A DNA stretch of 64,000 nucleotides from the IMG/VR virus record IMGVR_UViG_3300027689_000306. The stretch is one strand, 5' to 3'. Source of the DNA: an uncultured virus (IMG/VR IMGVR_UViG_3300027689_000306). Its lineage: Duplodnaviria > Heunggongvirae > Uroviricota > Caudoviricetes > Crassvirales. The notes under the pieces were generated by a model that saw nothing but the letters and a program-made list of their open reading frames with translations, was not told where the DNA came from and searched no databases. Each line of letters opens with the position of its first letter. The first letter of the stretch is position 1. Below are positions 4,939 through 61,447 of the stretch, piece by piece. The position numbers and the translations under genes are program-made.

Positions 4939-4959
4939 AAGCTCCTAATTAAGGAGCTT
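4939..4959. terminator. Bidirectional intrinsic terminator
   Basis: AAGCTCCT-AATTA-AGGAGCTT flanked by an A-tract and a T-tract between convergent genes. Confidence 0.85.
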
Positions 4960-7899
4960 TTTTATTTCATCTATCACCATCTCTGGTGTAACACTCTTCT
5001 GACATTCAAACTGTCTGTCTGTTCCTTTATGTACAGGACACCAATCCCAATCTCCTTTATCAAACTTATACTGTGGATCATTCCAACATCCATGGCACAC
5101 ACTCGTGTTCACTGGTCTATGACATGTAAACTCATGATGCTTATCAGTGAAGTTACTGATCATGATCACTGGTACATCTAATGCCCAAGCTAACCAGCTA
5201 AGCCCACTAGATAGTCCTATAAAGAATCTACTATTGTATATAGTAGTCATAGTGTTAGTCATTGAGTTGTCAAGTAATCCTTGACAGTTGTCAAATGGAT
5301 TATGCTCTAATGATGTATTTATCACTTTATATCCTTGATCATGTAGATAGTTAATCACCTCTTGCCAATGCTCTCTGGTCCAGAACTTACATCCTGCTGT
5401 AGAATTAGTAGCTATTGAAACTTGTCTCATTGCAAGATGTATTCTACTGTTTACAATCCTTGGTTTGATTTCTTCATAAGGAAGACCTAGAATGTTTGTA
5501 GCTGTCTGCTGTAATGGAATAGTGTTAGGAAGCTCAGGTTCTTTGTTTGAATTATAGAACCAACCAAGTTTGTACATAGCATATAGATTAGTTACATTAG
5601 TTCCTGGCTCAACAAACTCAAGCTCTGGATATGCATCTTCAAACAAGAAGTTCTTGAATGTACTTACAATCACATCACATCTGTGCTTCACTTTGAATTC
5701 TAATGCATAAGGCATCCAAGCTATTGTATCTCCTAAAGAAGAACTATCAAATGCAATGTACACTCTCTTACCTTCCAACTGTACGAATTTATTGTACACC
5801 TCAACACCATCTTTATACACAACTGTTCTCCAGTTAGTGTAATACTCTCTAGCAAGTTTTATCCAATGGTTACACTTTATTTTATCATGATGTATTAAAG
5901 TGGGACCATCATAAAACTCTACACGAAAGTCACTGGTAGATGTTCCTGTTATCTCTAAGAATGGTTGGCCTACGAAGTGTTGTGTTATATTATAATCATT
6001 TACGTCATTTTTGTGTGGAATAACAGACATTGCATGCTTATACAAATTTAAGTTATCCTTAGCAAAGAATATAGATGGGTTATCAATTGGTATAGGATAA
6101 TTTACAGGAGATGCTAACATACTTGTTATCTGTGGTACTATCATAATAGGATTTAGATTAGTTATATACTTAGTGAACATGTCTTTATATTGAGGAAGAT
6201 TTCTAGCTAGTATAGGTTTGCCATAACTAATAGCTTCTCTTAACACTAGCGGATTACATTCCCATGTAGAGTTAAACATAAACAAGTCTGCAGCTTTCAT
6301 AAACAAGTCAGTATTTGTTTGCTCTCCCCATATCTTTACATTATCAGGAACATCTTTCATTAATGGTTCCCAATAGTCTTTGAAGTTCCCAGCTTGGTTA
6401 CCTACAAAGTGGAAGTGTACATCTGGCATTTGTCTAGCTGCTTCTAATCCTTCTCCCTGGTTCTTTCCTTTAGTCCAAAGTCCTATGTTTACAACATGTT
6501 TCTTTGTTATATTCATTTCAAGATTTATTTGTGCAGCAGTTTGTTCAACCTTTTTTATAGGATTATAATCTATAGGATACTGAATCACTTCTTTATATCC
6601 ATCAAGACTAGCAAATGTATCTACATGATAAGGACTACAGAATGCATATGCATCTGGTGTAAACATTTTAGTCTCTGGTACAAAAGATATATCATGACAA
6701 GTTTCAATGATACGATATGATCTGTTATGATTGTATAATGATACGATCATTTCCCTATCTAATCTCTCAGACATTTCATCTATATGGATAACATCTGGGT
6801 TGAACTGTTGTATAATTTGAAACAGTTCCATTTTATCTTCATACAATGTGTGTACAGGAACAATATCCATTATCTTATTTCTCTGTACAACAAAGTCTAA
6901 ACTATGGCATTGATATTCTACAACATAGATCTGTACGTCTGTATAATCTTTTAATGCTTCTATTCTCTTAAGAAGAAACTGAGGCATACCACCTGTTGAG
7001 AGGTGAGGAGCAAGAAACATTATTCTCATAGATTTAGACATTTTAGACATTAGTTCAGACATTACAACAGGATCTTTCTCTCCATGTAAGAAGAATAGAT
7101 CCTGCTCACAAGCTGGCAATTTAAACCATGATCTTACATACTTACCCCAGTTATCTTCATTAAACACCTCATCAAACTTATCAAGACTGGCATTAGTATA
7201 TATATAAGGAAGACCATCTAAGAACTTATGTTTCCATAAGAGAACATTAACTATTGTCTCTTCGTGATAAGGGGCATAGTGTTGTGGATCTTTTAGTATC
7301 TCTGGATGATTACACATCCAACTCCACTCATTTAAGAATGGTATAGTGTTTTGACCAGCTACAAAGTAACCAGTTTGTCTATACTTATCTCTAACAGATT
7401 GATTTACATTAAACAATTCACATGCTGGATATTCTAATGTCTTAGCTAGTTCATTACTACCTCTTCCATTGATGAATAGATAGTCATATATACCTTCTGT
7501 GAAATACGGAAATTCCGAATTTGTAGGATAGTAGTTGAATATTCTATCTACATACTTAGTTGCTACACTGTCAGAATCTACATAACATATTATCTCAGCA
7601 AATCTCTTAAGAGCATCTTTAACTATAAGAGGTCTTTGTATTAGTAGATTGTATATTCTAGAATCATCTCTATCTATATAAGATGATTTTGGTACATCTT
7701 CCACATCACATTCCCAGTAAACAGTGTTAGCTCCAGGAACCTCCCTATGATCATTTAACATGTACACTGTAATTGGTATATCACTAAACTGTTGAATACT
7801 CTCTACAGCCATACATACAGTGCTGTAATAAGAAGTGTTTGCATATAGAACATACATTCTATCTGCTTTCATATTTTTATCTGTAAAACTATAAGGCAT
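4945..7899 (-). CDS. Tri-domain glycosyltransferase: GT-A (DxD) + GT4-like GT-B + AAH/TibC-type (BAHT) heptosyltransferase domain
   Basis: N-terminal YVDSDS; middle STGGMPQ and ECNPLVLREAISYG; C-terminal SLGDTIAW, FIGLSSGLSWLAW, CHGCWN, WCPxH, FEC. The annotated TTG start at 7920 overlaps the promoter, so ATG 7899 (or 7872) is likelier. Confidence 0.85.
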   Translation of the reverse strand: MPYSFTDKNMKADRMYVLYANTSYYSTVCMAVESIQQFSDIPITVYMLNDHREVPGANTVYWECDVEDVPKSSYIDRDDSRIYNLLIQRPLIVKDALKRFAEIICYVDSDSVATKYVDRIFNYYPTNSEFPYFTEGIYDYLFINGRGSNELAKTLEYPACELFNVNQSVRDKYRQTGYFVAGQNTIPFLNEWSWMCNHPEILKDPQHYAPYHEETIVNVLLWKHKFLDGLPYIYTNASLDKFDEVFNEDNWGKYVRSWFKLPACEQDLFFLHGEKDPVVMSELMSKMSKSMRIMFLAPHLSTGGMPQFLLKRIEALKDYTDVQIYVVEYQCHSLDFVVQRNKIMDIVPVHTLYEDKMELFQIIQQFNPDVIHIDEMSERLDREMIVSLYNHNRSYRIIETCHDISFVPETKMFTPDAYAFCSPYHVDTFASLDGYKEVIQYPIDYNPIKKVEQTAAQINLEMNITKKHVVNIGLWTKGKNQGEGLEAARQMPDVHFHFVGNQAGNFKDYWEPLMKDVPDNVKIWGEQTNTDLFMKAADLFMFNSTWECNPLVLREAISYGKPILARNLPQYKDMFTKYITNLNPIMIVPQITSMLASPVNYPIPIDNPSIFFAKDNLNLYKHAMSVIPHKNDVNDYNITQHFVGQPFLEITGTSTSDFRVEFYDGPTLIHHDKIKCNHWIKLAREYYTNWRTVVYKDGVEVYNKFVQLEGKRVYIAFDSSSLGDTIAWMPYALEFKVKHRCDVIVSTFKNFLFEDAYPELEFVEPGTNVTNLYAMYKLGWFYNSNKEPELPNTIPLQQTATNILGLPYEEIKPRIVNSRIHLAMRQVSIATNSTAGCKFWTREHWQEVINYLHDQGYKVINTSLEHNPFDNCQGLLDNSMTNTMTTIYNSRFFIGLSSGLSWLAWALDVPVIMISNFTDKHHEFTCHRPVNTSVCHGCWNDPQYKFDKGDWDWCPVHKGTDRQFECQKSVTPEMVIDEIKKLLN

Positions 7900-7917
7900 G
7901 GTATTTGATTTTGAAAA

Positions 7918-7925
7918 CAAAGGTA
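7918..7925 (-). promoter_or_regulatory. Bacteroidota-type -7 promoter element for the GT gene
   Basis: TACCTTTG on the - strand matches TAnnTTTG. Confidence 0.6.
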
Positions 7926-10155: not shown

Positions 10156-11163
10156 ATGGCTATACCATCTAGACAGATAGGCTGGGGAACAGAAGATAAC
10201 CTATTATGGCAAATCTCTAAGCAATTAGAAAGACTAACTCAGGTGACAGGTAATAGTGTAAGTGGATCTCAAACACTTGCACAAACACTTGTTACTGGAA
10301 ACAATACAGGTGGGAATAATATACTATTAAATAGTACTGATGCAATACAGTTAGAAAATAATTCATCACTTAGAAAAGGAACTTATGACTTTGGTCAAGG
10401 TGGTGGTGTTTCACGTATATGTGGTGTAGACTATGAGGATATGTGGCAAGGTGGAATTAGACACGTATTTGATAGTCTTGGATATATCAGAAATTCAACA
10501 AATGGTTTTGGTATAATTCCTGATTCAAATTTTGATGAAGATTTAAGATTTAAAATTGGTTCATTTTGGAGTTTAGATGATGGTGCTACTTATGTATGTA
10601 CTGATGCAACAATAGGAGCTGCTGTTTGGGAATTATATTTTACACCTCCTAAGTATAAAGTGTTTACAGCTTTATTAACGCAAAGTGGGGATGAGGAAGT
10701 TTTTACTATTACAAGTGGATTATTAACAATAGGGATTACATATTACATAGATGATAATACTGGAAATTCTGATTTTACTAATGTTGGAGCTCCTAACAAC
10801 AATATAGGAACTTATTTTCTTGCAACAGGAACAACTCCTAATAGTTGGGGACAAGGGCTATTAGCATATACTAGTGGAGCACCAGTAGCAACTGTATTAG
10901 AGAATACTATTGGGAATATTTGGTTTAGTTATAATTATATTGGAACTTATGGTGTTAATTCAGATGGTTTATTTACATCTAATAAAACAACAACATTTAT
11001 TCAAAATGCAACTGATGATGCAAATAACAATTCAACAAATATACTTTTTGGACAAGATGAATACAATATTCAAATAATAACTGCTGCTAATGTAGGGGGT
11101 ATATTTTCAGATTATGATGGGCTATTGTATAACAATTCAATAGAAATAAGAGTTTATAACTAA
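10156..11163 (+). CDS. Modular virion protein with MAIPSRQIG N-terminal module
   Basis: Shares about 30 N-terminal aa with 11174 and 13093; C-terminal YKVFTALLTQSG...IEIRVY domain. Confidence 0.65.
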   Translation: MAIPSRQIGWGTEDNLLWQISKQLERLTQVTGNSVSGSQTLAQTLVTGNNTGGNNILLNSTDAIQLENNSSLRKGTYDFGQGGGVSRICGVDYEDMWQGGIRHVFDSLGYIRNSTNGFGIIPDSNFDEDLRFKIGSFWSLDDGATYVCTDATIGAAVWELYFTPPKYKVFTALLTQSGDEEVFTITSGLLTIGITYYIDDNTGNSDFTNVGAPNNNIGTYFLATGTTPNSWGQGLLAYTSGAPVATVLENTIGNIWFSYNYIGTYGVNSDGLFTSNKTTTFIQNATDDANNNSTNILFGQDEYNIQIITAANVGGIFSDYDGLLYNNSIEIRVYN

Positions 11164-11173
11164 TAAATAAAAC

Positions 11174-12037
11174 ATGGCAATACCTAGTAGACAAATTGGT
11201 TGGAGCACTAAAGCTAACTTACTATGGCAGATATCTAAACAATTAGAACGTCTGACATGTGTAACTGCTGGTGGATGTGGCACAACCACCACCACTACCA
11301 CTATTGGTCCTACTACCACTACTACTACCAGCACTATTGCTCCTACCACCACAACAACAACTACAATTTGTGTAGACTTTATTAATAGTATTGTTATTTC
11401 TGGTGGTTCATACACTGCTGCTAATGGAACTTATACAAGAGTTAATCCTTCAGGATCTTTTACATTAACAGGTGGAGGTGGTGCTATATTCTTTGGTGGA
11501 GATGCTTGGTATATTTTTAATACTTCAATTGGAAACGTTGCAAGAAATACATCTACACTAGGAACTGGAACATGGGAACCTTGGGCTCCTGGAAATTCAT
11601 CAGGAATTACTGCAGAGTATTTTTATTATACTTGTCCAACCACTACAACCACAACTAGTAGTTCTTCAACAACCACCACATCTACAACAGTGGCTCCAAC
11701 TACCACTAGTACAACAACTGCAGTTCCAACTACTACAACCACAACTAGTAGTAGTTCTTCAACAACAACAACCACTACTACAACTGTAACTGTTTATACA
11801 TATAATTTTGATAGTTGTTGCGAAGGTGGGTGTGCTGCAACAGTATATTCAACCTCTGCTTCAATAATAGTTGGAACTGTTTTCTATACCAATCCACAAT
11901 TAACTAATCAGTGGACTTCTCCTTGTTCTGATTATCTGTTAGACGGATGTGTTCCTTTAGGAGACTATGGTTTTGGAGGATATTATATTGTAGATGGTGT
12001 AGTTGTGTTGTTAGATAGAGGAGTAAATTGTCAATAA
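11174..12037 (+). CDS. Mucin-like Thr-tract protein with MAIPSRQIG module
   Basis: Shared N-terminal module and two poly-Thr/Ser tracts separating small domains. Confidence 0.75.
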   Translation: MAIPSRQIGWSTKANLLWQISKQLERLTCVTAGGCGTTTTTTTIGPTTTTTTSTIAPTTTTTTTICVDFINSIVISGGSYTAANGTYTRVNPSGSFTLTGGGGAIFFGGDAWYIFNTSIGNVARNTSTLGTGTWEPWAPGNSSGITAEYFYYTCPTTTTTTSSSSTTTTSTTVAPTTTSTTTAVPTTTTTTSSSSSTTTTTTTTVTVYTYNFDSCCEGGCAATVYSTSASIIVGTVFYTNPQLTNQWTSPCSDYLLDGCVPLGDYGFGGYYIVDGVVVLLDRGVNCQ

Positions 12038-12072
12038 TAAATAAAAAATAATCATATTAAACCAACTACATT

Positions 12073-13089
12073 ATGAAAGATTTAAAATTTGTACAAGCTT
12101 GCCCAAGCGATATTTATTACACATGGCAAGTGAACCTTTGGATGGAAAGTCTAAAAGAAATAGGACACTCTGACAAAGCAATCAATCTAATTTTTACTCC
12201 TAAAGGAAGAGAGAATAGAGATAAATGGAAACAGATAGAAGACCTGTATCCAGAAGGTGAGTTTCATTACTACGAGGATGAGGATAACTTAAATCGATTA
12301 TTAGGAATCTATATTCCTGTACTTAGACCATATGTTCTTTGGAAACATTTCAAGAAACATCCAGAGCTAAGTGAGAAAGCAATCTTCTATTGTGATTCTG
12401 ACATTTTATTCATGAAGGATTTCAATGTGGATCAGTTCTTAGAAGATGACATCAACTATCTATCAGATACAAATAGTTACATAAATGCTAAATATTTTGA
12501 TAGTAAGATACATCAAGTGCTACCAGAAAAACTGGAAGAGTATAAAGCTAGAGATGTTCTTGCAGAGATTGCAAGTGTTGTAGGAATAAGCAGAGAAATC
12601 TGTGAAGCTAACAATGATCATTCAGGAGGAGCACAATATCTATTAAAGAATTTAGATGGTGACTTCTGGAGTAAGGTGATGAATGATTGTATTCTTATAA
12701 GAAGCTATTTACAGACAGTGAATAGAGAATACTTTAAAGATGAAAATGCTGGATACCAAAGTTGGTGTGCTGATATGTGGGCTGTTCTTTGGAACATCTG
12801 GTTGAGAGACCAAGAAACAAAGGTGGTTCCTGAAATGGCTTTTGCATGGGCTACAGATCCTATATCAAAACTTGATAGTCATACAATCTTTCATAATGCA
12901 GGAATAGTTTCTGAAACAGGAAATGGTTACCCAGCTTTTTACAAAGGAAAATATCACATGGGAACTGATCCAACAAAAGATCCTAACTTAGACCTTGTCA
13001 TCAATGATGAGAATTCAAAGAAATATTGCACATCGTTTTATGCTACTAAGCTAAAAGAGATAAAAGATAAATATAAATTAGACTATTAA
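12073..13089 (+). CDS. GT-A glycosyltransferase resembling peptidyl-Ser galactosyltransferase / Hyp arabinosyltransferase (GT96/GT95)
   Basis: YYTWQ, YIPVLRP, FYCDSDILF (DxD), GGAQYLL and WCADMWA occur in the same order as the SERGT1/HPAT motif blocks. Confidence 0.7.
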   Translation: MKDLKFVQACPSDIYYTWQVNLWMESLKEIGHSDKAINLIFTPKGRENRDKWKQIEDLYPEGEFHYYEDEDNLNRLLGIYIPVLRPYVLWKHFKKHPELSEKAIFYCDSDILFMKDFNVDQFLEDDINYLSDTNSYINAKYFDSKIHQVLPEKLEEYKARDVLAEIASVVGISREICEANNDHSGGAQYLLKNLDGDFWSKVMNDCILIRSYLQTVNREYFKDENAGYQSWCADMWAVLWNIWLRDQETKVVPEMAFAWATDPISKLDSHTIFHNAGIVSETGNGYPAFYKGKYHMGTDPTKDPNLDLVINDENSKKYCTSFYATKLKEIKDKYKLDY

Positions 13090-13092
13090 GTA

Positions 13093-14994
13093 ATGGCTAT
13101 ACCAAGTAGACAAATAGGTGGAAGTACAAGAACATCTCTTCTTTGGCAGATCTCTAAGCAATTGGAAGAATTAATCTGTATTAGAAGTGGAGGCTGTGGT
13201 TCAACAACTACTACCACCACTACTATTATAGAACCTACCACTACTACAACTACATCTTACCCTATTCCTATAGAATGTATTGTATATAATGCTGCTAATG
13301 GTAACATATACATATATGATCCATTAACTAATTTATCAGTTGAAATACTTAATGATGAATCTCCTTATTTTCAAGTAGCAAATACTGATACAAAATTATG
13401 GAGTTCTCAAAGTGGTGGTTATGTACAAGAATATGATTTAACCTTTACTCCTGGTCCTTCACTTGTATTTAATAGATCAATTAATACTGGTAGTGTAACT
13501 GTTTCAGGAACATTTGCAATTGATAACACTACATTAATTGTAGGTGATGCTTTCACTCTAGGAATTTATGAATTAGATATAACTACTGCCACTTCAATAA
13601 ATACATTAAAAGGTGCTATAGAAATTGGATTTGTACCAAATGATATGTTATTAACTACTTCTGGTAAGTTAATAATAGTTGCAACTAATGCACCTACTAA
13701 TACTATTACAAAGGTATATCAATATGATTATGCTACTTGGACATTAGAAACAAATCTTAATTTAACTAGTCAATTGCCTGCATTAAATTATGGTATAGGG
13801 ATAGCAGAATATGATGGCGACATATACATATTTACAAGAATTGTTGAGTGTAATATTAACACTACACCATCAGGAGTTTACATATTAGATCCATTAACAA
13901 ATAACATAACTCTTGTAAATAGTACAGGACTTAGTTGTCCATCTGGAACATCTAGTTGGTTACCATGTAACACTACAAGTTTAACTAGCTCAAGTTCTAC
14001 AACTACTACAACAACAACTCTTTCTGCTGAATGTGCTATTGCATTTGCTAATAATAATAACAGTTTATTTGTAACTGATGGTTCTCCTACAACTTTTATA
14101 GAGTTTGATAGTTCAGCAAGTATTCCACAATCACCAAGTATTGCAACTACAATAAATAAACTTTTTGTATTAGTCAACGAAGATAATTTATTACAACCTG
14201 TTAGAAAGATATATGAATATAATATGTCATATTCTCCAAATTCACTAACGTTTGTTAGAGAAATAGATTATCCAGTTGGAGTAAATTCTTTAGGAAACGG
14301 AGCATGTGCATTAAGTGATACAATGTTAGTTGTACCTATACCACAATGTACTCCAGATTATGCAGTTTGTGTAAATCCAACACCTATAGTAAAATTAAAT
14401 ATATCAGGTTCTGTTGCTGTAATAGATTCTACTATTACTTACTTACCGATGTTTAATGAAACTACAACAGGTGGAGTACCTACAGGAAATGTTTATTCAA
14501 ATCTAATTACAGGTGATATAATTTACACTACAAATAATAAAATTATAACATTAGATCAAAATTCTACATGGCCTTTAGTAAGTTACATACATCAATATGA
14601 TGCTATAACTGGAAATTTAGAATTTGAACGAGTATTAGATACACCTTTATCTCCAACTTTACCAAGATTAGATGGTGCTGTTGGTATATTTGTATTTAAT
14701 TCAAATTTACATTTAATAAATAATACAGATCCTATTACAGGAGCAGGTACACAATCATACATATATCAAGTTGGTTTAACTAGTCCATATAACATAACTT
14801 CATTAGGTCAAGCATCTCCACTTTTATTATATGCTGATGGAAGTAATTCTGCTGGTTGTGTAAATGTTAGTTTCACTCCTAATATAATAACAACTACTAC
14901 TACTACTACCACAATACCACCCACTACAACTACAACAACAACACTAGCACCAAGTGGGTTTAACACGATCTATACATATTTTGAATCTTTATAA
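13093..14994 (+). CDS. Mucin-like protein with MAIPSRQIG module and two tandem propeller-like domains
   Basis: Shared N-terminus, three Thr tracts and an internal duplication of an approximately 230-280 aa domain. Confidence 0.7.
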   Translation: MAIPSRQIGGSTRTSLLWQISKQLEELICIRSGGCGSTTTTTTTIIEPTTTTTTSYPIPIECIVYNAANGNIYIYDPLTNLSVEILNDESPYFQVANTDTKLWSSQSGGYVQEYDLTFTPGPSLVFNRSINTGSVTVSGTFAIDNTTLIVGDAFTLGIYELDITTATSINTLKGAIEIGFVPNDMLLTTSGKLIIVATNAPTNTITKVYQYDYATWTLETNLNLTSQLPALNYGIGIAEYDGDIYIFTRIVECNINTTPSGVYILDPLTNNITLVNSTGLSCPSGTSSWLPCNTTSLTSSSSTTTTTTTLSAECAIAFANNNNSLFVTDGSPTTFIEFDSSASIPQSPSIATTINKLFVLVNEDNLLQPVRKIYEYNMSYSPNSLTFVREIDYPVGVNSLGNGACALSDTMLVVPIPQCTPDYAVCVNPTPIVKLNISGSVAVIDSTITYLPMFNETTTGGVPTGNVYSNLITGDIIYTTNNKIITLDQNSTWPLVSYIHQYDAITGNLEFERVLDTPLSPTLPRLDGAVGIFVFNSNLHLINNTDPITGAGTQSYIYQVGLTSPYNITSLGQASPLLLYADGSNSAGCVNVSFTPNIITTTTTTTTIPPTTTTTTTLAPSGFNTIYTYFESL

Positions 14995-14995
14995 T

Positions 14996-16249
14996 ATGGA
15001 AAACAATATTGAAAACATAAAACTGAAAGTACAAGAGTTAGCACTGTCCAACCCTAATGTTAACAGCATAGCTTATGGTTATAAGTTTGTTGGAGGTGAG
15101 CAAACTGATGAGCTTTGTATTATATATGGTGTTCAAGAGAAAAAACCTCTATCTGAACTATCTCCTGAAGAAATTGTACCTACTGAAATAATTGTAGGAG
15201 ATCAAGTCTTAAGAACAGATGTTTATGAAGTGAATATGGCAGAACTAATTGCTTGTAATCCTGTATGTGGACAAATAGCTGGACCTAACTCAGCTGTTAA
15301 CAGAGCTGTTACAAGACCGTTAGTAGGTGGTTTATCAATTACATCAACTAATCTATCTGGTTTTGTAGGAACTATGGGATTCATAGGAGTGCATACAGAA
15401 ACACAAACATTAGTAGGTGTTACTAATAACCACGTTATAATACAAGATGCATTCTATACATCAGAAAGAAACTTAGCTGGTGTTATTCAGAATGAATACT
15501 CTCCAATAGATTATATATATCAAAATGGAGAAGGTATAAGCCCTGCTAATATAGTAGGACAATCATTAAGATATGTTCCTATTGTTAAACAATCAACTGG
15601 AAATAACTATGTAGATGGTGCAATATTTTCTGTAGAAGCTGCAGACATTAATATAGCAACATCATATCGACAGGCTGGAGTTAGTGATTACACTCTTCCT
15701 CTACCATTTGCTTCAACAGCAGAGATAGATAATCTATTAACTACAAACCCAATGATCTATAGTTCTGGTAGAACTACAGGACCTAAAGGTGGTGCAAGTT
15801 GTCCAATGAGAATAGGTGCTTTATTTACAGTATTAAATATAAACTATAAATTACAAGGTGGTACTGCAGTAGCTACGTTTCTTGATCAAATAACATTTGT
15901 TAAACCAGAGAATGATCCTAGCTTAACAACTATTTGTTCTAATCCAATATTTGGTGGTGATTCAGGATCTGCATTAATTGCTGACTTTGGTGGTGTAAGA
16001 AAGATAATTGGATTGGTATTTGCTGCAGGATCAGTTGGAGGTATAGTTTATATTGGATATGCAAACAGAATTGATAGAGTGGCATCAGAACTAGGTATAG
16101 AAGCTTGGGATGGTACAGCTAAAGGCTATGTAGATCCAGCATCAATTACATATAAAACTACCTACAATGGTAGCTCAAATAAAATATTAAATTGTGATGG
16201 TACAAACTACTGGCAAGTAGGATTAACCACATTAGATACACCTTGTTAA
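14996..16249 (+). CDS. Trypsin-like serine protease (Nal1-like) with N-terminal pro-domain
   Basis: GTMG, TNNHV (His), VDGA (Asp), GRTTG and GDSGS (Ser). Likely start MENN, 1 nt after the upstream stop. Confidence 0.85.
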   Translation: MENNIENIKLKVQELALSNPNVNSIAYGYKFVGGEQTDELCIIYGVQEKKPLSELSPEEIVPTEIIVGDQVLRTDVYEVNMAELIACNPVCGQIAGPNSAVNRAVTRPLVGGLSITSTNLSGFVGTMGFIGVHTETQTLVGVTNNHVIIQDAFYTSERNLAGVIQNEYSPIDYIYQNGEGISPANIVGQSLRYVPIVKQSTGNNYVDGAIFSVEAADINIATSYRQAGVSDYTLPLPFASTAEIDNLLTTNPMIYSSGRTTGPKGGASCPMRIGALFTVLNINYKLQGGTAVATFLDQITFVKPENDPSLTTICSNPIFGGDSGSALIADFGGVRKIIGLVFAAGSVGGIVYIGYANRIDRVASELGIEAWDGTAKGYVDPASITYKTTYNGSSNKILNCDGTNYWQVGLTTLDTPC

Positions 16250-16283
16250 ACCTAAACTATTAACCATAAATTAAAAAAAAGAA

Positions 16284-16769
16284 ATGGGAAGCATTAATTC
16301 AAGACCTTTAAAGGCTTATGTTAGATTCGATGGATCTGGCAGAATAGTTGCAGGAAGCTTAGTTCTTAGAAAGAATAAGCCTAAAGTTGGTAAGTGGAAA
16401 GAGATTTCAGCATATGAGTGCTGTAATCCTACAACCACTACATCCACTACAGCTGCACCAACAACATCAACAACATCTAGTTCTACTAGTACAACAACAA
16501 CCACAGTAGCACCTACAACGACTACCACTACAACAACTTTTCCAGGGTATTATACATGGTTAATGGGTAAAAGCACTAGTGCAGCCGCTGCATGTGCTGA
16601 ACCTACTGCTCCTATATATTCAGCAGTTACTCCATTAGATCTTGGTGTAATTTTGTATGCAAATACAGGATTAACTGTTCCTGCATCTCCTTCATGGTAT
16701 GCAGTTGGTGGTAGAGCATATGAAGTGGATGGAACTGGTGAAATTATAACGGAAACTTTGTGTCCATAA
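16284..16769 (+). CDS. Thr-tract protein with LKAYVRFDGSGRIV N-terminal module
   Basis: The N-module ends ECC, followed by a Thr/Ser tract and a small C-domain similar to that of 11174. Confidence 0.75.
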   Translation: MGSINSRPLKAYVRFDGSGRIVAGSLVLRKNKPKVGKWKEISAYECCNPTTTTSTTAAPTTSTTSSSTSTTTTTVAPTTTTTTTTFPGYYTWLMGKSTSAAAACAEPTAPIYSAVTPLDLGVILYANTGLTVPASPSWYAVGGRAYEVDGTGEIITETLCP

Positions 16770-16785
16770 TAACTAAAAAATAATC

Positions 16786-16995
16786 ATGGCTAGAAATAAT
16801 AATAATAAGCTTAAAGCTTTTGTACGTTTTGATGGTTCAGGACGTATTGTACCAAGTAGTTTAATTGTACAAGCATTTAAACCTGCTGTAGGTAACTATA
16901 AACAAATTGATGCTAAAGAGTGTTGTAATTATACAACTACAACCACTACCACTGTAGCTCCAACTACAACTAGCACAACTACAATTCCTGGATAA
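16786..16995 (+). CDS. Short paralog: RFDGSGRIV module plus Thr tail only
   Basis: LKAFVRFDGSGRIVPSSL...KECCNYTTTT. Confidence 0.75.
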   Translation: MARNNNNKLKAFVRFDGSGRIVPSSLIVQAFKPAVGNYKQIDAKECCNYTTTTTTTVAPTTTSTTTIPG

Positions 16996-19138: not shown

Positions 19139-19342
19139 ATGAGAATATACGAACCAAAGAATCGAATAGATGTTACAACCCCCAAGGGAGATGGGATGAT
19201 TTGGTTAGTGACTGATTATGGTCATGAAACAGATACCATCTATACAATTATAATTAATCAAACAGGTGAGATGTGGCAATACACTCACAAAGACATTATT
19301 GTTAAACCCAATATAACATTTAAACGCTATGGCAACAATTAA
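19139..19342 (+). CDS. Hypothetical protein
   Basis: 67 aa with V.TPKG.G and DYG.E motifs. Confidence 0.6.
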   Translation: MRIYEPKNRIDVTTPKGDGMIWLVTDYGHETDTIYTIIINQTGEMWQYTHKDIIVKPNITFKRYGNN

Positions 19343-19751: not shown

Positions 19752-19754
19752 GTC

Positions 19755-21024: not shown

Positions 21025-21043
21025 ACAATTAAAATAATATATA

Positions 21044-21713: not shown

Positions 21714-22364
21714 TTATAATGTGTATTGATTTGAATATACATTACCTTCAAATAACTTATACCTTATACCAAACTTATGTAATAAGTATGGGAGGCTAAG
21801 TTGGTCTTGAACAGACCATATACAATTGTGGTAAAACCATTCCTTCATTACATTGTGTTCTTTATTAGCTACAATGTCTTTAGAATATATGAATGTGCCA
21901 CATTCAAAGAGAACATTATCTATCCAAGATGCATCTTTAAAATACTCATCCACTTGCTCTTTCATTCTTTCTCCGTTATATCTATCTAGAAGATATTGAT
22001 TACCTGTATTCATTAAACTGATTACAAAATCTAATTCTTGTTTAACAGAACTTCTTCCTGAATGTGCAAAGAAACAAGCATCTACACCAATACATGCATC
22101 TACCATTCTCTCTATAGATGATTCATCTGATATTGAAAATCCAGAATCCATCCATATATAATAATCATACCCAGGATGATCTTCCCAAACTACTATCTTA
22201 GGTATTTTACCACGTAGTCTAGGTGACATAGCTTTTGTTCTTGGAGATTCTGTTTTATTATCTATTCTATTAAATACTATCTCATATCTATCAGACACTT
22301 GATCTACCCATTTAGAACGTAATTCTCCACCAAATAAAGCTGTACTAACTAATACTCTAATCAT
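21714..22364 (-). CDS. DUF616/TOD1-MUCI70-like glycosyltransferase
   Basis: YIWMDS, H.GR.SV..E and QDQLSLPY motifs. Confidence 0.7.
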   Translation of the reverse strand: MIRVLVSTALFGGELRSKWVDQVSDRYEIVFNRIDNKTESPRTKAMSPRLRGKIPKIVVWEDHPGYDYYIWMDSGFSISDESSIERMVDACIGVDACFFAHSGRSSVKQELDFVISLMNTGNQYLLDRYNGERMKEQVDEYFKDASWIDNVLFECGTFIYSKDIVANKEHNVMKEWFYHNCIWSVQDQLSLPYLLHKFGIRYKLFEGNVYSNQYTL

Positions 22365-22372
22365 AATAATTA

Positions 22373-22933
22373 TTATTTAAGTCCCATATACCAACCATAT
22401 GGACCAATGTTTTGTATTTTAAAACCATGTTGATTAAGTAGGAACATAGATGCATCTGTTAAAGACTTCCAATTTGGATTCATCCAATCGTGAAAGCTCA
22501 CAATTATCTGATCGATTTTTGAGAAGTCTTCACTGTCCATTGAATGTAATAATGGAAACTCTGCACCCTCTATATTCATTTTCAATATAGAGATGTCTGT
22601 GATGTTATATTTAGTACAGAAACTTTTCCAACTAATGGAAGGAATCCATTCTCCAGAATCAGAACTATCACTTGATATATGTGATGCATCTTTTTGGTAT
22701 GTCATTTTGATTAAACCATCAAAACTACCAACCACTCCTTTGAACAACTCAGCACCATTTGGAACTTCATTCTCAAATGGATCAGCTCCAATCACTGTTT
22801 TCTTTCCAATGAATATCTCTGACCAGTTCCAATGAACACAGCCTAAATCTATTATACAACCATCATGAGCAAATGCTCTATCGTCAACTCTGGAATAGTT
22901 TTCTCCAGAAATAGTTTGAATTAAATTTCCCAT
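22373..22933 (-). CDS. FkbM-family SAM methyltransferase
   Basis: IIDLGC, ILKMNIEGAE, QIIVSFH. Confidence 0.8.
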   Translation of the reverse strand: MGNLIQTISGENYSRVDDRAFAHDGCIIDLGCVHWNWSEIFIGKKTVIGADPFENEVPNGAELFKGVVGSFDGLIKMTYQKDASHISSDSSDSGEWIPSISWKSFCTKYNITDISILKMNIEGAEFPLLHSMDSEDFSKIDQIIVSFHDWMNPNWKSLTDASMFLLNQHGFKIQNIGPYGWYMGLK

Positions 22934-23682
22934 TATTTGTTTATATAATCTTTTAGCATTTGTTTATAATCTTTATTCCAATGAGGATTTAAATGAACCT
23001 CTCCTGTAGGAATTAATCCTTTTTGTCTTAGATCTTCTATATGATCACTGTGTCTCTGTATGATGTTAGGTCTATCTGCAGTGTCTGTACCTTGTCCAGA
23101 TTGATGATAACCTCTACCACCCCACATGTAGAACCAAGAACATTCTTCATTAGGAGGACTAGCTAAAACCATTCCTTGTCTTCCTAGATTCTGTAGAGCT
23201 ATAACTAATGTCATATCTCCACCAGCATTCTGTATTGGACTTTTTCCAATTGCTTCCCAAGCTTTCTTGCTATATACAATACCTGAGTTACCAAGACCCA
23301 TTATCTTTGTAATATTAGGCTCATTATAGAACACACCATTTTCCCAATGTAATATGTTAGCATCTGGTCTCCAAAACTTAGCTATGTTAGAGAGATGATT
23401 AGACAAAGCTACATCATCATCATCCCATACAGCAATAAGTTCTCCAGAACATAGTTCTATAGCATAGTTCTCTTTATCTCCTATGGTAGGAAATGTTTCA
23501 TCTAGATTAAAGATTTTTATCTCTGGATGATCGTACACTAACTTCTGTAGAGGGTAGTCATTAACTATAATAAGTTCTTTCTTACCAGGATACTCCTGAA
23601 TGAGGAAGCTTTGTATTGCTTCCTCAAGAGTATCTACTCTTCCATAAGTTATACATTTACAACTAATAAAAGGATATTCCAT
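22933..23682 (-). CDS. GT2-family glycosyltransferase
   Basis: ISCKCITYGR, ELIIVND, VWDDDD. Confidence 0.85.
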   Translation of the reverse strand: MEYPFISCKCITYGRVDTLEEAIQSFLIQEYPGKKELIIVNDYPLQKLVYDHPEIKIFNLDETFPTIGDKENYAIELCSGELIAVWDDDDVALSNHLSNIAKFWRPDANILHWENGVFYNEPNITKIMGLGNSGIVYSKKAWEAIGKSPIQNAGGDMTLVIALQNLGRQGMVLASPPNEECSWFYMWGGRGYHQSGQGTDTADRPNIIQRHSDHIEDLRQKGLIPTGEVHLNPHWNKDYKQMLKDYINK

Positions 23683-55056: not shown

Positions 55057-55389
55057 ATGGCAATAAAGAAAACTACATATATAAATACAGAACTTGATTG
55101 GGCTGAAGAACAGTTATCAAGCTGGAAACAATACGTTGATGCTAATCCCTTACATACATTAGAGGATAGAATCAAATGGAAAGAAACTAAAGCTGGTGGA
55201 GCAATGCCTATGGTGATTGCATCTATTGAAGCACAGGGTAAGTTTGTACAAGAGACAATGAAGAACTATTTAGCTCTCTTAGAACAAGTAGAGAAACTAC
55301 GTGAGAAAGAAGAAGCTAAAGTGGTACCTATAAGAGGTGGTGGTGAGCTAGGAAGTATGGCAGAAGATTTCTTAAAAGGTAGAAGATAA
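55057..55389 (+). CDS. Hypothetical protein, possible terminase small subunit
   Basis: Helical, ends in IRGG, directly upstream of and coupled to terL; positional inference only. Confidence 0.4.
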   Translation: MAIKKTTYINTELDWAEEQLSSWKQYVDANPLHTLEDRIKWKETKAGGAMPMVIASIEAQGKFVQETMKNYLALLEQVEKLREKEEAKVVPIRGGGELGSMAEDFLKGRR

Positions 55390-57416
55390 TGTTAGATGGC
55401 TTACAAAGTATTGATTACAAGGATTGGTTCATCAATCAGAAGAGAGTTCCACAGAAAGATTCAGAGGAGTATAGGGAATTCTATGCCTATCATAAACAAC
55501 TATGTATTGATGGCTGTACAATGGGAGGAGTATATATTAACCCTTTTCTATATTGGCATTTAAACTTCTGGAATACAGAGGTGGATATTATAGATGATAG
55601 AGGACGTATATCACAGAAATATGCTAACCCATATCTACGTGATAACGAGTGGATTATTACAAACGAAATAGATAGAGCACATACAGAAAAGAAAGGCCTA
55701 GTCATACTGGGCATTCGTCGTTTAGCTAAGTCAGTAATTGAGAGCTCCTACATAGGTCATGGTGCAACGTTCGATGAGAACTCCCAGAACATTATAGCAG
55801 GACTAAATGCTCCCGATATAAAGCTTATTACAGATAAGATTGACAAAGGATTAAACTTCTTACCAGAAGCCTGGAGATGGCAGAGGGTAGAAGACAACTG
55901 GAAAAACCAAGTTACATTAGGGATCAAGACAAAAGCAGGAGAGAGAATCCCCTTTTCTCAGATCCTTATTCGTAACTTAGATGGTGGTAACAATGAAGAG
56001 GCTATTGCAGGTACAAAACCTAGAAGGCTTATTATTGATGAGATAGGTAAGGGTAATTTCCTAAGAGGATTACAAGCTGCAACACCAGGTTTTACTACAC
56101 CATTTGGTTGGGGATGTTCTCCAATTCTAACTGGTACAGGTGGAGATATGCAAAACTTCATGGATGCAAAGAGCTTAATGTTCGATGTAGAGAATTTCAA
56201 CTTCTTAGAATATAAGAGTGCTAAAGATGATCAAAGAATTCATGGCTTATTCATCTCCCATAAATATAGAATGGAAGCTAAGGAAGATTCTTCTTTAGGA
56301 GCTTATCTAGAACAACCAGCAGATTCTGAGTTACATAATGTAAAGATGCTAGTCTCTAATGAAGAGAAAGCAGATGAGATTACAAATACTAATCTTGAAA
56401 GATTAAAGAAAGCTGGTGATAGACTAGCTTATTTAAAAGAGAAGATGTACTATCCACAAGAGGTGGATGATATATTCTTGAATGAGGATACAAACATCTT
56501 TGATATAGAAGCAGCTAAACGTCAGAAGACCAGACTATTAGCACAAGAAAGAACAGGAACACCTGTTGTTTTATATGATGATGGTGATGGTGTGAAACAT
56601 GAGTTTACAGATAAGCGTCCTATATCAAACTTCCCTCTCAAGAATAGTGATCAGAAAGATGCTCCTGTAGTGATATATGAGTTTCCAATTGATAGTCCTC
56701 CATATGGATTATATGTTGCAGGGATTGACCCTTATAGACAAGGAAAGTCTGCATATTCTAGTTCATTAGGATCTGTCTATATATACAAACGTATGCATGC
56801 TATTTCTGGAGAGAAGTATCAAGATATGTTTGTAGCTAGCTATTGTGCTAGGCCAGAGAAGAAAGAAACATGGGAAGAGCAAGCTAGATATTTAATCAAG
56901 TATTACAATGCTAGAGCTCTATGTGAGAACGACGAGATATCTTTTATAGACTACATGATAGCCAAAGGAGATGCTCATTATCTAGAGAAACAACCAGATT
57001 GGTTAAAAGAAATAGTTCCAAACACCACTGTTAGAAGGGATTACGGAATACATAGATCTTCTGAGAAAATACGAGACTTCTTACATGGAGCTCTTAAGAA
57101 ATATACAGAAGAAGTGATACATACAGAGAAGGATGAAGATGGAAACATTAAGTCTGAGATAAAGGGTATGGCCAAGATATTTGATCCTGTACTATTAGAA
57201 GAGATGATTCAGTATAATGAATCAGGTAACTTTGATAGAATCATTGCTGCAGAGCTTGCAATAGCTCTTGCTATGAAACTAGATCCCATTATGGGAAAAA
57301 TAGGAGGAGAGCAAGATGTAAGAATACAATCAATGTTCAAGAAGAACAAAAAGAATAGGCTGTTTACAGAAAGCAGACCAATGTTTAACACACCAAAAAA
57401 TAAATTGTTTACATAA
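55389..57416 (+). CDS. terL: Terminase large subunit
   Basis: YWHLNF, RRLAKS (crAss-type Walker A), IIDEIG, GTGG, GIDPY, GNFDR. Confidence 0.92.
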   Translation: MLDGLQSIDYKDWFINQKRVPQKDSEEYREFYAYHKQLCIDGCTMGGVYINPFLYWHLNFWNTEVDIIDDRGRISQKYANPYLRDNEWIITNEIDRAHTEKKGLVILGIRRLAKSVIESSYIGHGATFDENSQNIIAGLNAPDIKLITDKIDKGLNFLPEAWRWQRVEDNWKNQVTLGIKTKAGERIPFSQILIRNLDGGNNEEAIAGTKPRRLIIDEIGKGNFLRGLQAATPGFTTPFGWGCSPILTGTGGDMQNFMDAKSLMFDVENFNFLEYKSAKDDQRIHGLFISHKYRMEAKEDSSLGAYLEQPADSELHNVKMLVSNEEKADEITNTNLERLKKAGDRLAYLKEKMYYPQEVDDIFLNEDTNIFDIEAAKRQKTRLLAQERTGTPVVLYDDGDGVKHEFTDKRPISNFPLKNSDQKDAPVVIYEFPIDSPPYGLYVAGIDPYRQGKSAYSSSLGSVYIYKRMHAISGEKYQDMFVASYCARPEKKETWEEQARYLIKYYNARALCENDEISFIDYMIAKGDAHYLEKQPDWLKEIVPNTTVRRDYGIHRSSEKIRDFLHGALKKYTEEVIHTEKDEDGNIKSEIKGMAKIFDPVLLEEMIQYNESGNFDRIIAAELAIALAMKLDPIMGKIGGEQDVRIQSMFKKNKKNRLFTESRPMFNTPKNKLFT

Positions 57417-60001
57417 TGGCAATAATTAGATATACAAAAGACGCAACCATTAGATATGCTTATCTAAACATCTTCCCAGATCAGTTCAAAACAGAGAAGG
57501 AAAAGATGGATGAGAGTTGGATAAAGAATACAATGGATTATTTTTCTAACAAAGCATATGCTGAGTATGTAAAGAACAGAGATACATTCGTTAAGAATTA
57601 TGATCTTATGAAAGGAATCTTACGTATGGAAGATTTCTATCAAGAACCAGAGGTGAGAAGCTTCACAGACGTACTAACATCTGATTTAGAACTTCCTGCA
57701 TACGTGAAGATGTATTCTATTGTTACCACTCCTGTAAATGAGTTAGTAGGAGAAATCTCTAAAAGACCAGATACATTTAGGGTGAAAGCTTTTGATGATG
57801 ATAGTCAAGCAGAAGAACTACAATTCAAAACAGATACATTACAACAATATGTTATTGGTCAAGTTCAACAACAACTTGCTCAGAAAGCAGCTTTACAAGG
57901 ACAAGAGATTGATCCTGAACAATTGCAACAAATGACAATGGAACAGGTTAAGGATGAGCTAGATAGCTATACATCTATTGCTGAGAAATGGGCCAACCAC
58001 ATTCTTACATGTCAGAAAGCTGAATTCAATATTAAAGAAAAATCTGAAGATGCGTTTAGAGACTTACTGATATCTGCTAGAGAATTTTATCACATATATG
58101 AAGACAATTCAAAACTTGGTTTTAATGTTGAAGTGGCTAACCCAAAGAACACTTGGTTTCTTACTACTCCTGATAGAAAGTTTATATCTGATCCCACAGG
58201 GAGAGCTCAAGGAGCTTATGCTGCTGGTACAGTACAAGTTATGGAACTTTCAGAGATTATTGAAAGCATACCAGATCTTACTAAAGAAGAGATAGATCAC
58301 TTACGTTCCTCTCTTCAGGATTATGGATTGATCAATGTTAGAGAATCTAATCTTGGTAATCCAGATGCTATTCCTGGACAAGACTCTGTAATGTATGATA
58401 CCTTTGACCCTCTTGTGTTACAAACAAGAATGATCATTGAATCAGAGATGAAAGAGAATAATGATGGACTAAAAGACTTCTTAGGTCTTACCAATAATGT
58501 AAGTTCATTCGGATATAAGTATGTAGTGGTTAGAAGCTATTGGATCTCTAAGAGAAAGATAGGTAAGTTAATCTACATAGATGATATGGGTAATGAGCAA
58601 TCATTGATTGTTGATGAATCATACAAATCAGGAACTGTTCCTACACAACAATCATTAGAATGGGGATGGGTAAATGAATGGTATCAAGGAACTAAAATTG
58701 GTCCAGACATTTATCATATCAAACCATTTAAATTATTAAACTATTGTCCTATTATAGGAACAACATATGAGGTGAAGAACACAGAGGCTAAATCTCTTGT
58801 AGATCTTATGAAACCTTTTCAAGTGATTTATAATGTATGTATGAACCAATTGTACAAACTTCTAGAGAAAGAAGTTGGTAAGGTGCAGCTTATGTCATTG
58901 AGACATATTCCTATTCCTAAAGATGGAGATGCACAAGATGCTCTTGACATATGGGAAATGGAAGCACGTAATAGAGGTGTGGTGTTTATTGATGACAGCC
59001 CAGAGAACTTAAAATCTCCTAGTTCATTCAATCAGTTTACAGCTCTTGATCTTACACGTACGCAGGAGATACAATCTAGATATACATTAGCTCAACAAAT
59101 GAAACAAGAGTGTTGGGAACTTGTAGGTATGTCTAGACAACGTATGGGATCTGTAGCTGCATCTGAAAGTGCTACAGGAACAAACACTGCTATGCAACAA
59201 AGTTATTCTCAAACAGAGCCTCTTTTCGTTGCTCACGAGTATGTGCTTGGACAATTCTATCAAGCTATTATAGATGCTGCTCTTTATGTAGAATCATCTA
59301 AACCACAATCTACGCTTTCATACATCACTTCTGAAGGACAATCTGCATTCGTACAAGTGAATGGATCAGATCTTAAATTCAGAGACTTAAAAGTGTTCCT
59401 TACTAATAGACCAGAAGACACTCAAATGTTTAATGAGCTTAGACAACTTTCTCAAGCCATTATTCAAAATGGTGGCACGCTTTATGATGTAGTGGAACTA
59501 TATAGTACTAAGTCTCAAAGAGAACTTAAGAAAACATTTAAAGATCTTAGAGATAGACAGATTGCTCAACAAGAACAAGCTAACAAGTTGCAACAACAAC
59601 AAATGCAACAACAACAAGAACAAGCTCAAGCTACATTACAACAAACTGCCCAACTTGCTCAAGAGAAACAAGCTAATGATGATTATCAAAAACAACTTGA
59701 TAGAATCTCTAAAGAGAAGATTGCTATTATACAAGCTACAGGATTTGGTAATGTAGAATCAGAGGATATTAATGCTAATGCTGTTCCTGATGTATTGGAA
59801 ATCAGTAAGTTAAATGCTGAAGAAAATAAAGCTAACAAAGACTTTGGATTAAAGATGGCTGATATACAAGCTAAGAATAAACAAGCATCTGATAAAATGT
59901 CCATAGAGAAAGACAAATTACAAGTGGCAAGAGAGAATATGGACAATGATCTTGCTGTTGCAAAAGAGAATGCCAAGGGCAGAAATAACAAAAAAGATTA
60001 A
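57416..60001 (+). CDS. Portal protein
   Basis: 861 aa after terL; L.GE..KRP, SLVDLMKPFQ..YN, G.SRQR.G and a Gln-rich coiled C-terminus as in crAss portals. Confidence 0.9.
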   Translation: MAIIRYTKDATIRYAYLNIFPDQFKTEKEKMDESWIKNTMDYFSNKAYAEYVKNRDTFVKNYDLMKGILRMEDFYQEPEVRSFTDVLTSDLELPAYVKMYSIVTTPVNELVGEISKRPDTFRVKAFDDDSQAEELQFKTDTLQQYVIGQVQQQLAQKAALQGQEIDPEQLQQMTMEQVKDELDSYTSIAEKWANHILTCQKAEFNIKEKSEDAFRDLLISAREFYHIYEDNSKLGFNVEVANPKNTWFLTTPDRKFISDPTGRAQGAYAAGTVQVMELSEIIESIPDLTKEEIDHLRSSLQDYGLINVRESNLGNPDAIPGQDSVMYDTFDPLVLQTRMIIESEMKENNDGLKDFLGLTNNVSSFGYKYVVVRSYWISKRKIGKLIYIDDMGNEQSLIVDESYKSGTVPTQQSLEWGWVNEWYQGTKIGPDIYHIKPFKLLNYCPIIGTTYEVKNTEAKSLVDLMKPFQVIYNVCMNQLYKLLEKEVGKVQLMSLRHIPIPKDGDAQDALDIWEMEARNRGVVFIDDSPENLKSPSSFNQFTALDLTRTQEIQSRYTLAQQMKQECWELVGMSRQRMGSVAASESATGTNTAMQQSYSQTEPLFVAHEYVLGQFYQAIIDAALYVESSKPQSTLSYITSEGQSAFVQVNGSDLKFRDLKVFLTNRPEDTQMFNELRQLSQAIIQNGGTLYDVVELYSTKSQRELKKTFKDLRDRQIAQQEQANKLQQQQMQQQQEQAQATLQQTAQLAQEKQANDDYQKQLDRISKEKIAIIQATGFGNVESEDINANAVPDVLEISKLNAEENKANKDFGLKMADIQAKNKQASDKMSIEKDKLQVARENMDNDLAVAKENAKGRNNKKD

Positions 60002-60008
60002 AATAATT

Positions 60009-60024
60009 CCCCTCTTCGGAGGGG
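60009..60024 (+). other. UUCG tetraloop hairpin after the portal gene
   Basis: CCCCTC-TTCG-GAGGGG with no U-tract on the + strand. Confidence 0.6.
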
Positions 60025-60145
60025 CAAAAACACATTAATGCTATATTATCTGGAAAATTGGATCAGATGAACCAATAACACTTTGATATTAAATAGTGTT
60101 GTTATACTTTTACATAAATAAAACCAAACATAAATACAACTACAT

Positions 60146-61411
60146 ATGGCTGATAATTTAGAAACTATGGGTAACTTTAGTATCCAAGATACTATGGAAA
60201 TGGGAATGGGTAACCAAGAACTATTAAATGACTTGTTTTCCCCTGAGACATCTACTTCTAATCCAGAAGATGTTACACCTATTATTAAAGACGTAAATAC
60301 TCCTGATGCTCCTGAAGCTCCAGCAGTGAAAAAAGGTAAGGACATTGTTCCTCCTAAAAGCGTTGATGGTAAAACAGATGAAGAAAAAGGAGAAGGACAA
60401 TCTATGATTGCTGATTTCTTAAGTGATAATGAAGATGATGAAGATGATACACCACCTCCAGCAAAACCTGCAAAAGCTCCAGTAGCTGCTGCTGATGATA
60501 ATGCAGATGATGAGGATGAGCCTTCTGAAGGTACACAATTCACTGCTCTTGCAAATGATCTTTACAAACTAGGTGTATTCACTAATGATGATGATGAAGA
60601 TCCAGAAACAGTAACCACTGCAGAAGAGTTCTTAGAAAGATTTAATAATGAGAAGAAAAAAGGTGCCTCTGAAATGGTACAAAACTTCATAGCACAATTT
60701 GGAGAAGATTACCAAGAAGCGTTTGATGCCATATTTGTAAAGGGAGTTAATCCTAAGGAGTATTTTGGTACATATAATCAGATAGTTAATTTCGCTGAGA
60801 TGGATCTTAGTGATGAAAACAATCAGATGAGAATTATGAAACAAGCTTTAGCTGATCAAGGATTTGATGCTGAAGATGTAGAAACAGAAATCGAAAGACT
60901 TCAAAACTATGGTGATCTTGAAAGCGTAGCTACTAAACACCACAAAGTGTTAGTTAAAAAAGAGGCAGCTAAGTTACAACAACTAGAACAGAAATCTGAA
61001 GCTGAGTTAAGACAAAAAGCTCAAATCAGAAATCAATATATAGACAATGTACAAACCATCTTGCAAGAGAAGGTTAAAGCAAAAGAGTTTGATGGAATTC
61101 CTATCAATCCAAAATTAGCAACAGAACTACAAGACTTCTTATTAGTTGACAAGTGGAAAACTCCTACAGGAGAAACACTAACAGACTTTGATCGTGCTAT
61201 CCTGGATATGAAAAGACCAGAGAACCATGCAACAAAAGTTAAATTAGGACTACTTATGAAAATGTTGGAGAAAGATCCTACATTATCAACTATACAAAGA
61301 ACAGGTGTGACTAAACAGTCTAACCAATTGTTCGGAGAAGTTGCAAGACAAGTGACTAAACAAAAGTCAACTACTAGTTCAGGAGCTAAACCTAATTCAT
61401 GGTTCTTATAA
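60146..61411 (+). CDS. Acidic scaffold-like structural protein upstream of MCP
   Basis: D/E/P-rich N-terminus and helical C-terminus; conserved crAss position between portal and MCP. Confidence 0.65.
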   Translation: MADNLETMGNFSIQDTMEMGMGNQELLNDLFSPETSTSNPEDVTPIIKDVNTPDAPEAPAVKKGKDIVPPKSVDGKTDEEKGEGQSMIADFLSDNEDDEDDTPPPAKPAKAPVAAADDNADDEDEPSEGTQFTALANDLYKLGVFTNDDDEDPETVTTAEEFLERFNNEKKKGASEMVQNFIAQFGEDYQEAFDAIFVKGVNPKEYFGTYNQIVNFAEMDLSDENNQMRIMKQALADQGFDAEDVETEIERLQNYGDLESVATKHHKVLVKKEAAKLQQLEQKSEAELRQKAQIRNQYIDNVQTILQEKVKAKEFDGIPINPKLATELQDFLLVDKWKTPTGETLTDFDRAILDMKRPENHATKVKLGLLMKMLEKDPTLSTIQRTGVTKQSNQLFGEVARQVTKQKSTTSSGAKPNSWFL

Positions 61412-61447
61412 CAAAAATAAATAATTAACAACAAAAACGAATAAACA

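Follow-up and report, generated by a model that had tools for sequence, protein, structure and literature searches.

Glycosylation of virions has been described in Mycobacterium phages, whose capsid and tail-tube subunits bear C-terminal glycans that are presented as a shield (available text of PMC12619734; also PMC12582341). In plants and algae, the glycosyltransferase (GT) families GT95, represented by HPAT, and GT96, represented by SERGT1/SGT1, are related to one another and both act on the peptide backbone, and the HPATs are type II membrane proteins of the Golgi (available text of PMC8012813). Here, we analyzed a stretch of 64,000 nucleotides from an uncultured virus (IMG/VR IMGVR_UViG_3300027689_000306; "the window") that contains, at 12073..13089 on the + strand, a gene for a predicted glycosyltransferase surrounded by genes with poly-threonine tracts. 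Fold, conserved catalytic-type residues, kinship, gene order, and co-occurrence were evaluated computationally, and on this basis we consider it likely that the transferase works in the cytoplasm, where it O-glycosylates threonine tags on proteins of the phage's own particle; its probable role is to add the first sugar. It is from these data that we infer catalysis, the acceptor, a retaining mechanism, the first-sugar role, the virion location of the tagged proteins, and the purpose, either shielding or surface adhesion.

The transferase and its distant relatives

The product of 12073..13089 comprises 338 residues and is predicted to be a soluble, single-domain GT-A glycosyltransferase. The open reading frame (ORF) contains the motifs YYTWQ, YIPVLRP, FYCDSDILF, GGAQYLL, and WCADMWA in the order described in the initial annotation. 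The phrog_4417 profile matched over its full length (E 1.4e-53; residues 5-321 on positions 2-287 of 293), and look-ups in Pfam, NCBIfam, and PDB sequences gave no match (0 Pfam families at E values up to 1). No N-terminal hydrophobic segment that could act as a membrane anchor or secretory signal was found; the first strand starts from residue 4. The predicted model has the GT-A fold, including a DxD motif after the fourth strand, with a strand at residues 103-107 just ahead of it, as well as a C-terminal histidine. The DxD motif, D108-S-D110, is encoded at about 12394-12402 and presumably binds a metal. Across 95 relatives, D108, D110, H274, Q229, and G185-G186 are invariant columns. An enzyme of this fold could also place something other than a plain sugar on the threonine tags, e.g. 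a sugar-phosphate or a nucleotidyl group, which we regard as highly improbable.

The phrog_4417 family, or "prophage pi2 protein 34", includes Lactococcus phage 1706 orf14, bIL285 orf45, Enterococcus phiFL1A gp51, VPE25, and Chryseobacterium MA9V-3, and in all 60 matches listed the relatives are labelled hypothetical or unknown. Relatives numbered 2712 at 90% clustering and 767 representatives at 50% clustering. A tblastn search with the transferase matched 77 records of cultured phages at 26-35% identity, with a query coverage of at least 80% in 74 of them, and the hosts of the homologues belong to the Bacteroidota and to several genera of the Bacillota.

The initial annotation had likened the order of the five motifs to that of SERGT1. 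To evaluate this, SERGT1-like sequences were obtained by a motif scan of metagenomes. Eight loci were examined, four with and four without intact domains; five domains passed PF23452 at 49-76 bits, and their homologues carry the name peptidyl serine alpha-galactosyltransferase. Comparison of the transferase with a profile of 40 SERGT1-like sequences by hhalign gave a probability of 88.8 and an E value of 2.5e-6. The alignment spans 127 N-terminal columns, in which YYTWQ, YIPVLRP, and the DxD line up with their counterpart blocks; identity to SERGT1-like domains over the aligned columns is 13-17%. A single-sequence comparison gave 5.7 for one SERGT1-like sequence, against 0.6 for a GT2 control. 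Thus, the first three motifs stand in the register proposed, whereas the C-terminal motifs look similar and follow the same order by eye only, outside the program's alignment. PF23452 did not match the transferase of the window; 3 of the 95 relatives matched, the best at 15.4 bits, and membership in GT95 or GT96 was ruled out because the score lies below the cut-off of 23.9 bits. The transferase is therefore a distant relative of SERGT1/HPAT, and not a member of that family.

The models of the transferase and of a SERGT1-like protein both had A0A6J5SW30 as their best viral match, which links them reciprocally (template modelling (TM) scores of 0.83 and 0.60, respectively, with 0.47 for the next match of the latter). 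No HPAT or SERGT1 entry was among the fold-search matches listed, so that the structural link to them is based on two predicted models and a viral-structure library. SERGT1/SGT1, HPAT, and PF23452 have the GT-A fold and the same top structural neighbours as the phage transferase. In the Atlas, 22 of 30 named matches fell into clusters in which PF23452 is found in 10% or 58% of the members.

The outcomes that would have spoken against the initial annotation did not arise in the parts open to computation, although the lipopolysaccharide-type GT8 enzymes LgtC and WbbM tied with glycogenin among the top folds. Skp1 alpha-galactosyltransferase, GlyE, and LARGE1 were likewise level with glycogenin or just behind it. 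Membership in GT8 was ruled out, since the family model gave no sequence match and the resemblance is structural only. Skp1 alpha-galactosyltransferase, LgtC, WbbM, GlyE, and LARGE1 act on sugar acceptors. Their rank is what would be seen if the enzyme were an extender, with a transferase of the host or of another phage placing the first sugar on the threonine tags and the enzyme adding the next. Threonine tails in phages without the transferase gene would fit this scheme, and streptococci have host systems for the glycosylation of Ser/Thr-rich regions (available text of PMC12041528). However, SGT1 and HPAT, the closest relatives that have been characterised, act on the peptide backbone (available text of PMC8012813), and among the 150 representatives listed, longer relatives fuse the domain to GT2/6/7/29 domains that themselves look like extenders. 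In addition, one shared host initiator would be improbable because the hosts span the Bacteroidota and several Bacillota genera. An extender role is thus unlikely in our view, and addition of the first sugar is the reading that we prefer.

Threonine tracts and their co-occurrence with the enzyme

As the initial annotation had claimed, the co-directional genes at 11174, 13093, 16284, and 16786 bear Thr/Ser(Pro) tracts. A pattern of six consecutive threonine codons matched 25 times in the window, always on the + strand, between 11282 and 16952 and within these four genes; 100 shuffles of the sequence yielded 0 matches. The third codon positions are mixed (ACT/ACA/ACC/ACG), and the runs therefore look like selected protein sequence. 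An origin as DNA microsatellites was ruled out by the mixed third positions, the restriction to one strand, and the location within ORFs.

All four products are candidate acceptors. The protein encoded by 11174..12037 (+) consists of a head, a threonine tract (about 11282-11364), a small domain, a long Thr/Ser tract (about 11639-11784), and a Cys-rich tip. In that of 13093..14994 (+), a head is followed by tracts (about 13204-13253, 13999-14018, and 14890-14942) between two similar-looking domains, the first of which has a weak Kelch/propeller match under the cut-off (E 0.0056). The gene at 16284..16769 (+) encodes a second type of head (KAYVRFDGSGRIV...ECC), a Thr/Ser tract, and a small tip, and the 69-residue protein of 16786..16995 (+) joins this second head to a C-terminal threonine tail. 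The first head, of about 30 residues (MAIPSRQIG...LLWQISKQLE), is common to 11174, 13093, and the tract-less protein of 10156..11163 (+). In a homotrimer model of residues 1-165 of the latter, the chains contact one another through head residues 13-31. The score was 0.69, whereas the best of 3 controls reached 0.00; the runs shared at least 66% of contacts, and the predicted local distance difference test (pLDDT) was at least 60. For calibration with two copies only, the mark was reached by 21 of 30 solved pairs and by 0 of 23 single chains. The model supports, short of proving, fibre-like trimers. In two relatives of the phage (loci L001 and L035), the heads are retained, and the tips and gene numbers differ. 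None of the four tract proteins matched a PHROG family, and their virion location is thus presumed; in another relative, threonine tracts are inserted within a 2398-residue protein that matches virion structural families. The major capsid protein of the window phage (61448..63010) has no threonine tail.

Transferase homologues and threonine-tract genes co-occur strongly across phages. Threonine status was scored as six threonine codons anywhere in the fetched locus; the counts ignore kinship, and many records are fragments. Among close relatives, 76 of 80 loci contained such a run, and the one miss examined (L035) has shorter runs. Thirteen of the 77 matching records of cultured phages were hand-picked across hosts, and 12 had a six-threonine run; SAC12B has PTTV-type repeats. 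In phages 1706 and phiFL1A, the capsid and the tail tube each end in poly-threonine, and the transferase gene follows the tail-tube gene. The tagged capsids belong to distinct families (phrog_544, 29, 10, and 909), as do the tagged tail tubes (phrog_238, 88, 2645, and 6686).

A matched test was performed with three tail-tube queries, which yielded 187 loci. For 149 of these, the whole records were searched for the enzyme; the other 38, distant bIL285-type loci without a threonine run, were left out. Enzyme and run were both present in 12 phiFL1A-type, 14 bIL285-type, and 35 iLp84-type loci and both absent in 15, 28, and 36, respectively. Nine further iLp84-type loci had the run only; 4 of these are fragments too short to contain the usual position of the gene, and 5 are true exceptions. 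None of the 61 enzyme-positive records lacked a run. Both states are found at comparable tail-tube identities (79-87% and 64-68% for the phiFL1A type, 89-97% for the iLp84 type), which suggests, on the basis of these sequences, that enzyme and tag have been gained or lost repeatedly. In two prophages of the Lacticaseibacillus type that lack the enzyme (L328 and L360, 8205-8471), a Big_2 Ig-like gene stands behind the capsid gene, in the slot occupied in relatives by the threonine gene and the transferase. For the reverse test, 125 viral matches to nine threonine codons were collected; 80 had flanks, and 41 of 50 hand-picked records were searched as a whole. The two tests together indicate that the enzyme predicts the tag, but not the other way round.

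This asymmetry bears on a further explanation, namely that the threonine runs are plain unmodified linkers, that the enzyme targets the host envelope, DNA, or a small peptide, and that co-occurrence reflects linkage alone. Poly-threonine without the enzyme is indeed frequent, a plasmid homologue adjoins a LanC-like gene and has no threonine run, and phage transferases acting on DNA and on host serotype have been reported (available text of PMC12619734). On the other hand, the run is never missing when the enzyme is present in the matched test, the tails are on capsid and tail-tube genes of different protein families that are separated from the transferase gene by several genes, a tail at a protein terminus links nothing, and the transferase gene lies within the head-tail operons of cultured phages. 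We therefore hold an unrelated target to be quite unlikely and retain modification of the threonine tags.

Several observations weigh against this conclusion. The alignment with SERGT1 is limited to the 127 N-terminal columns, and the family member LP65 Orf49 ranked 30th for the SERGT1-like model. Most of the top structural matches lengthen existing sugars and do not start chains. The counted genomes are related to one another, and the crAss-like lineage to which the window phage belongs offers no contrast because both traits are fixed in it (50 of 50). The five non-truncated exceptions, of the Lacticaseibacillus type, lack the enzyme and yet retain a Thr-tailed tail tube; in one of them (L328), the tail tube stands behind a head module lacking the enzyme. 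In the reverse test, the enzyme was present in only 7 of 80 loci and in 7 of 41 whole records. In one locus from a cellular genome (L619), the enzyme is accompanied by no more than a short Thr-rich tail, on the neighbouring tail-tube gene. An unrelated phage (L096 9997-13843; record 74% complete) has threonine tails on several structural proteins and no match to the family, which points either to a second enzyme family or to a missing part of the record. The nearest record to the window (72% complete) has threonine runs and no transferase match. Finally, the homologue on plasmid pB3-10 of Rhizosphaericola mali (L624 11995-14835) has no threonine run.

PF23452 was also searched in five Thr-rich records without the enzyme and matched nowhere; this result is uninformative, because the controls gave no match either. 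Homologue loci were also found in cellular genomes (11 loci; of 3 checked, two had runs). The homologue on the Bacteroidota plasmid pB3-10 is joined to a GT2/GT7-like domain and adjoins a weak LanC-like gene, and the phrog_4417 family may, judging from this arrangement, also act in peptide-modification clusters.

Three cultured phages have unusual arrangements of threonine-coding sequence. In bIL285 (L083 7932-7986), the capsid gene ends at a TAA codon, and an in-frame, tail-tube-like threonine tail lies beyond the stop; 14 relatives have this run in the corresponding position. Either read-through or a premature stop that has become fixed is possible. In VPE25 (L086 7740-7885), a Thr-rich stretch of about 45 codons in the -1 frame directly follows the capsid stop, behind A-AAG, and is a candidate for a programmed frameshift that would yield a minority of tagged capsids. 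In a Staphylococcus phage (L091), a Thr-rich ORF overlaps the tail-tube gene and lies behind it.

Proposed mechanism and genome setting

Late in infection, the soluble, metal-dependent GT-A enzyme would take a nucleotide-sugar of the host and transfer the sugar to the Thr/Ser hydroxyls of the low-complexity tags on particle proteins, most likely as the first sugar and with retention of configuration. In the crAss-like lineage, the tags are linkers or tails in small proteins built from a head and a tip, which probably form trimeric fibres, and dense glycosylation of the tags would therefore give extended, mucin-like stalks. In phages of Gram-positive hosts, the tags are C-terminal tails of capsid and tail-tube subunits. 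Shielding would suit tails at the ends of capsid and tail-tube proteins, stiff stalks would suit the head-tract-tip proteins, and the swap with Ig-like genes suggests a role in surface interaction.

Other transferases in the window may lengthen the glycan. On the - strand, 4945..7920 encodes a multi-domain glycosyltransferase of 991 residues with GT-B group 1 and family 9 matches, a possible chain extender, and 21714..23682 contains a weak MUCI70-like gene (E 0.0064), an FkbM methyltransferase gene, and a GT2 glycosyltransferase gene, candidates for glycan extension or capping. Gene content at both slots varies among relatives.

The window belongs to the genome of a crAss-like phage: terminase, portal, and Crassvirus-type major capsid genes, which lie outside the proposed glycosylation system, are located at 55389..63010 (+), with matches to phrog_6681 and phrog_6547, and to PF23898 for the capsid (E 7.4e-28; 97.6 bits, cut-off 27). 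The closest cultured capsids are remote (22-25% identity; phages of Flavobacterium and Leptolyngbya), and complete relatives are about 110-119 kb long. Kinship with crAss-like phages suggests a Bacteroidota host. The tract cluster lies in a + strand block, with a collagen-like fibre gene and an M15 endolysin gene upstream. In the collagen-like protein (123-1322; PF01391, tail-fibre PHROGs), the X and Y positions of the Gly-X-Y repeats are nearly all Ser or Thr, which makes it an additional candidate acceptor. Within the cluster, 14969..16249 (+) encodes a protease-like protein with a GDSGS motif (phrog_20754) and no threonine tract; this gene is present in two copies in relative L001 and is not among the listed ORFs of L035. 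A DUF5856/ferritin-like gene (phrog_858; 16998-17414) directly follows the cluster, and the transferase was present in all 50 records that were fetched via this gene and searched. Five small proteins (19329-21532) that are strongly Lys-rich, repeat GG-containing motifs, and match no family are possibly DNA-binding virion cargo.

Comparison with known glycosylation systems

In its widest form, the proposal is that of a portable "glyco-tag" system, in which a widespread unnamed transferase family, sister to plant GT95/GT96, starts O-glycans on encoded poly-threonine tags. Phages of Bacteroidota and Bacillota would add such tags to any surface protein, be it capsid, tail tube, or fibre, and would swap the cassette against Ig-like decoration domains; the crAss-like lineage would build trimeric, mucin-like bottle-brush fibres. 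We give this wider proposal an even chance. If it is true, a glycan-coated virion would be the rule across an abundant group of phages, and a root in prokaryotes or phages would be indicated for the extensin-initiating enzymes. If modification of the tags by the transferase holds, a large hypothetical family would obtain a function, and glycosylation of tailed-phage virions would reach dairy, gut, and crAss-like phages via an unnamed and apparently different enzyme family and a recognisable acceptor tag, with a bearing on the immunogenicity of therapeutic phages and on the interpretation of phage proteomics and cryo-EM. It could also provide a soluble, cytoplasmic, tag-directed O-glycosyltransferase for glycoengineering. 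The hypothesis is directly testable in the cultured Lactococcus phages 1706 and bIL285.

Beyond the fold, likeness to SERGT1/HPAT consists of an N-terminal half that can be aligned through the DxD and, by eye, of the order of similar-looking C-terminal motifs. In contrast to HPAT, the phage transferase has no membrane anchor; it has one domain, whereas a SERGT1-like protein (L505) has two, and its acceptor would be threonine runs instead of Ser-Hyp repeats; the SERGT1/HPAT enzymes add Gal to Ser or Ara to Hyp. Identity is about 9-14%, with no sequence-level match, both to GT8-like retaining transferases (glycogenin, LgtC, GlyE, and Skp1 alpha-galactosyltransferase) and to the capsid glycosyltransferase of PBCV-1 (PDB 2p6w).

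No Mycobacterium phage was among the 77 tblastn records matching the transferase. Titles and the openings of abstracts contained nothing that links the phrog_4417 family or poly-threonine tails to phage glycosylation, and the gene lists of Freeman et al. (2023, Cell Host Microbe 31:1216) could include the family. The system outlined there for mycobacteriophages has its glycans at the C-termini of capsid and tail tube, which is where proteins encoded near phrog_4417 relatives carry threonine tails, and both systems would use a phage-encoded glycosyltransferase, here a predicted one. The tags of the window are on small fibre-like proteins and not on the major capsid protein, and the present system is a prediction from sequence. 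What is new in comparison with mycobacteriophage glycosylation is an unnamed and apparently different enzyme family, a dedicated poly-threonine tag as the presumed acceptor, and new host phyla, the Bacteroidota and the Bacillota.

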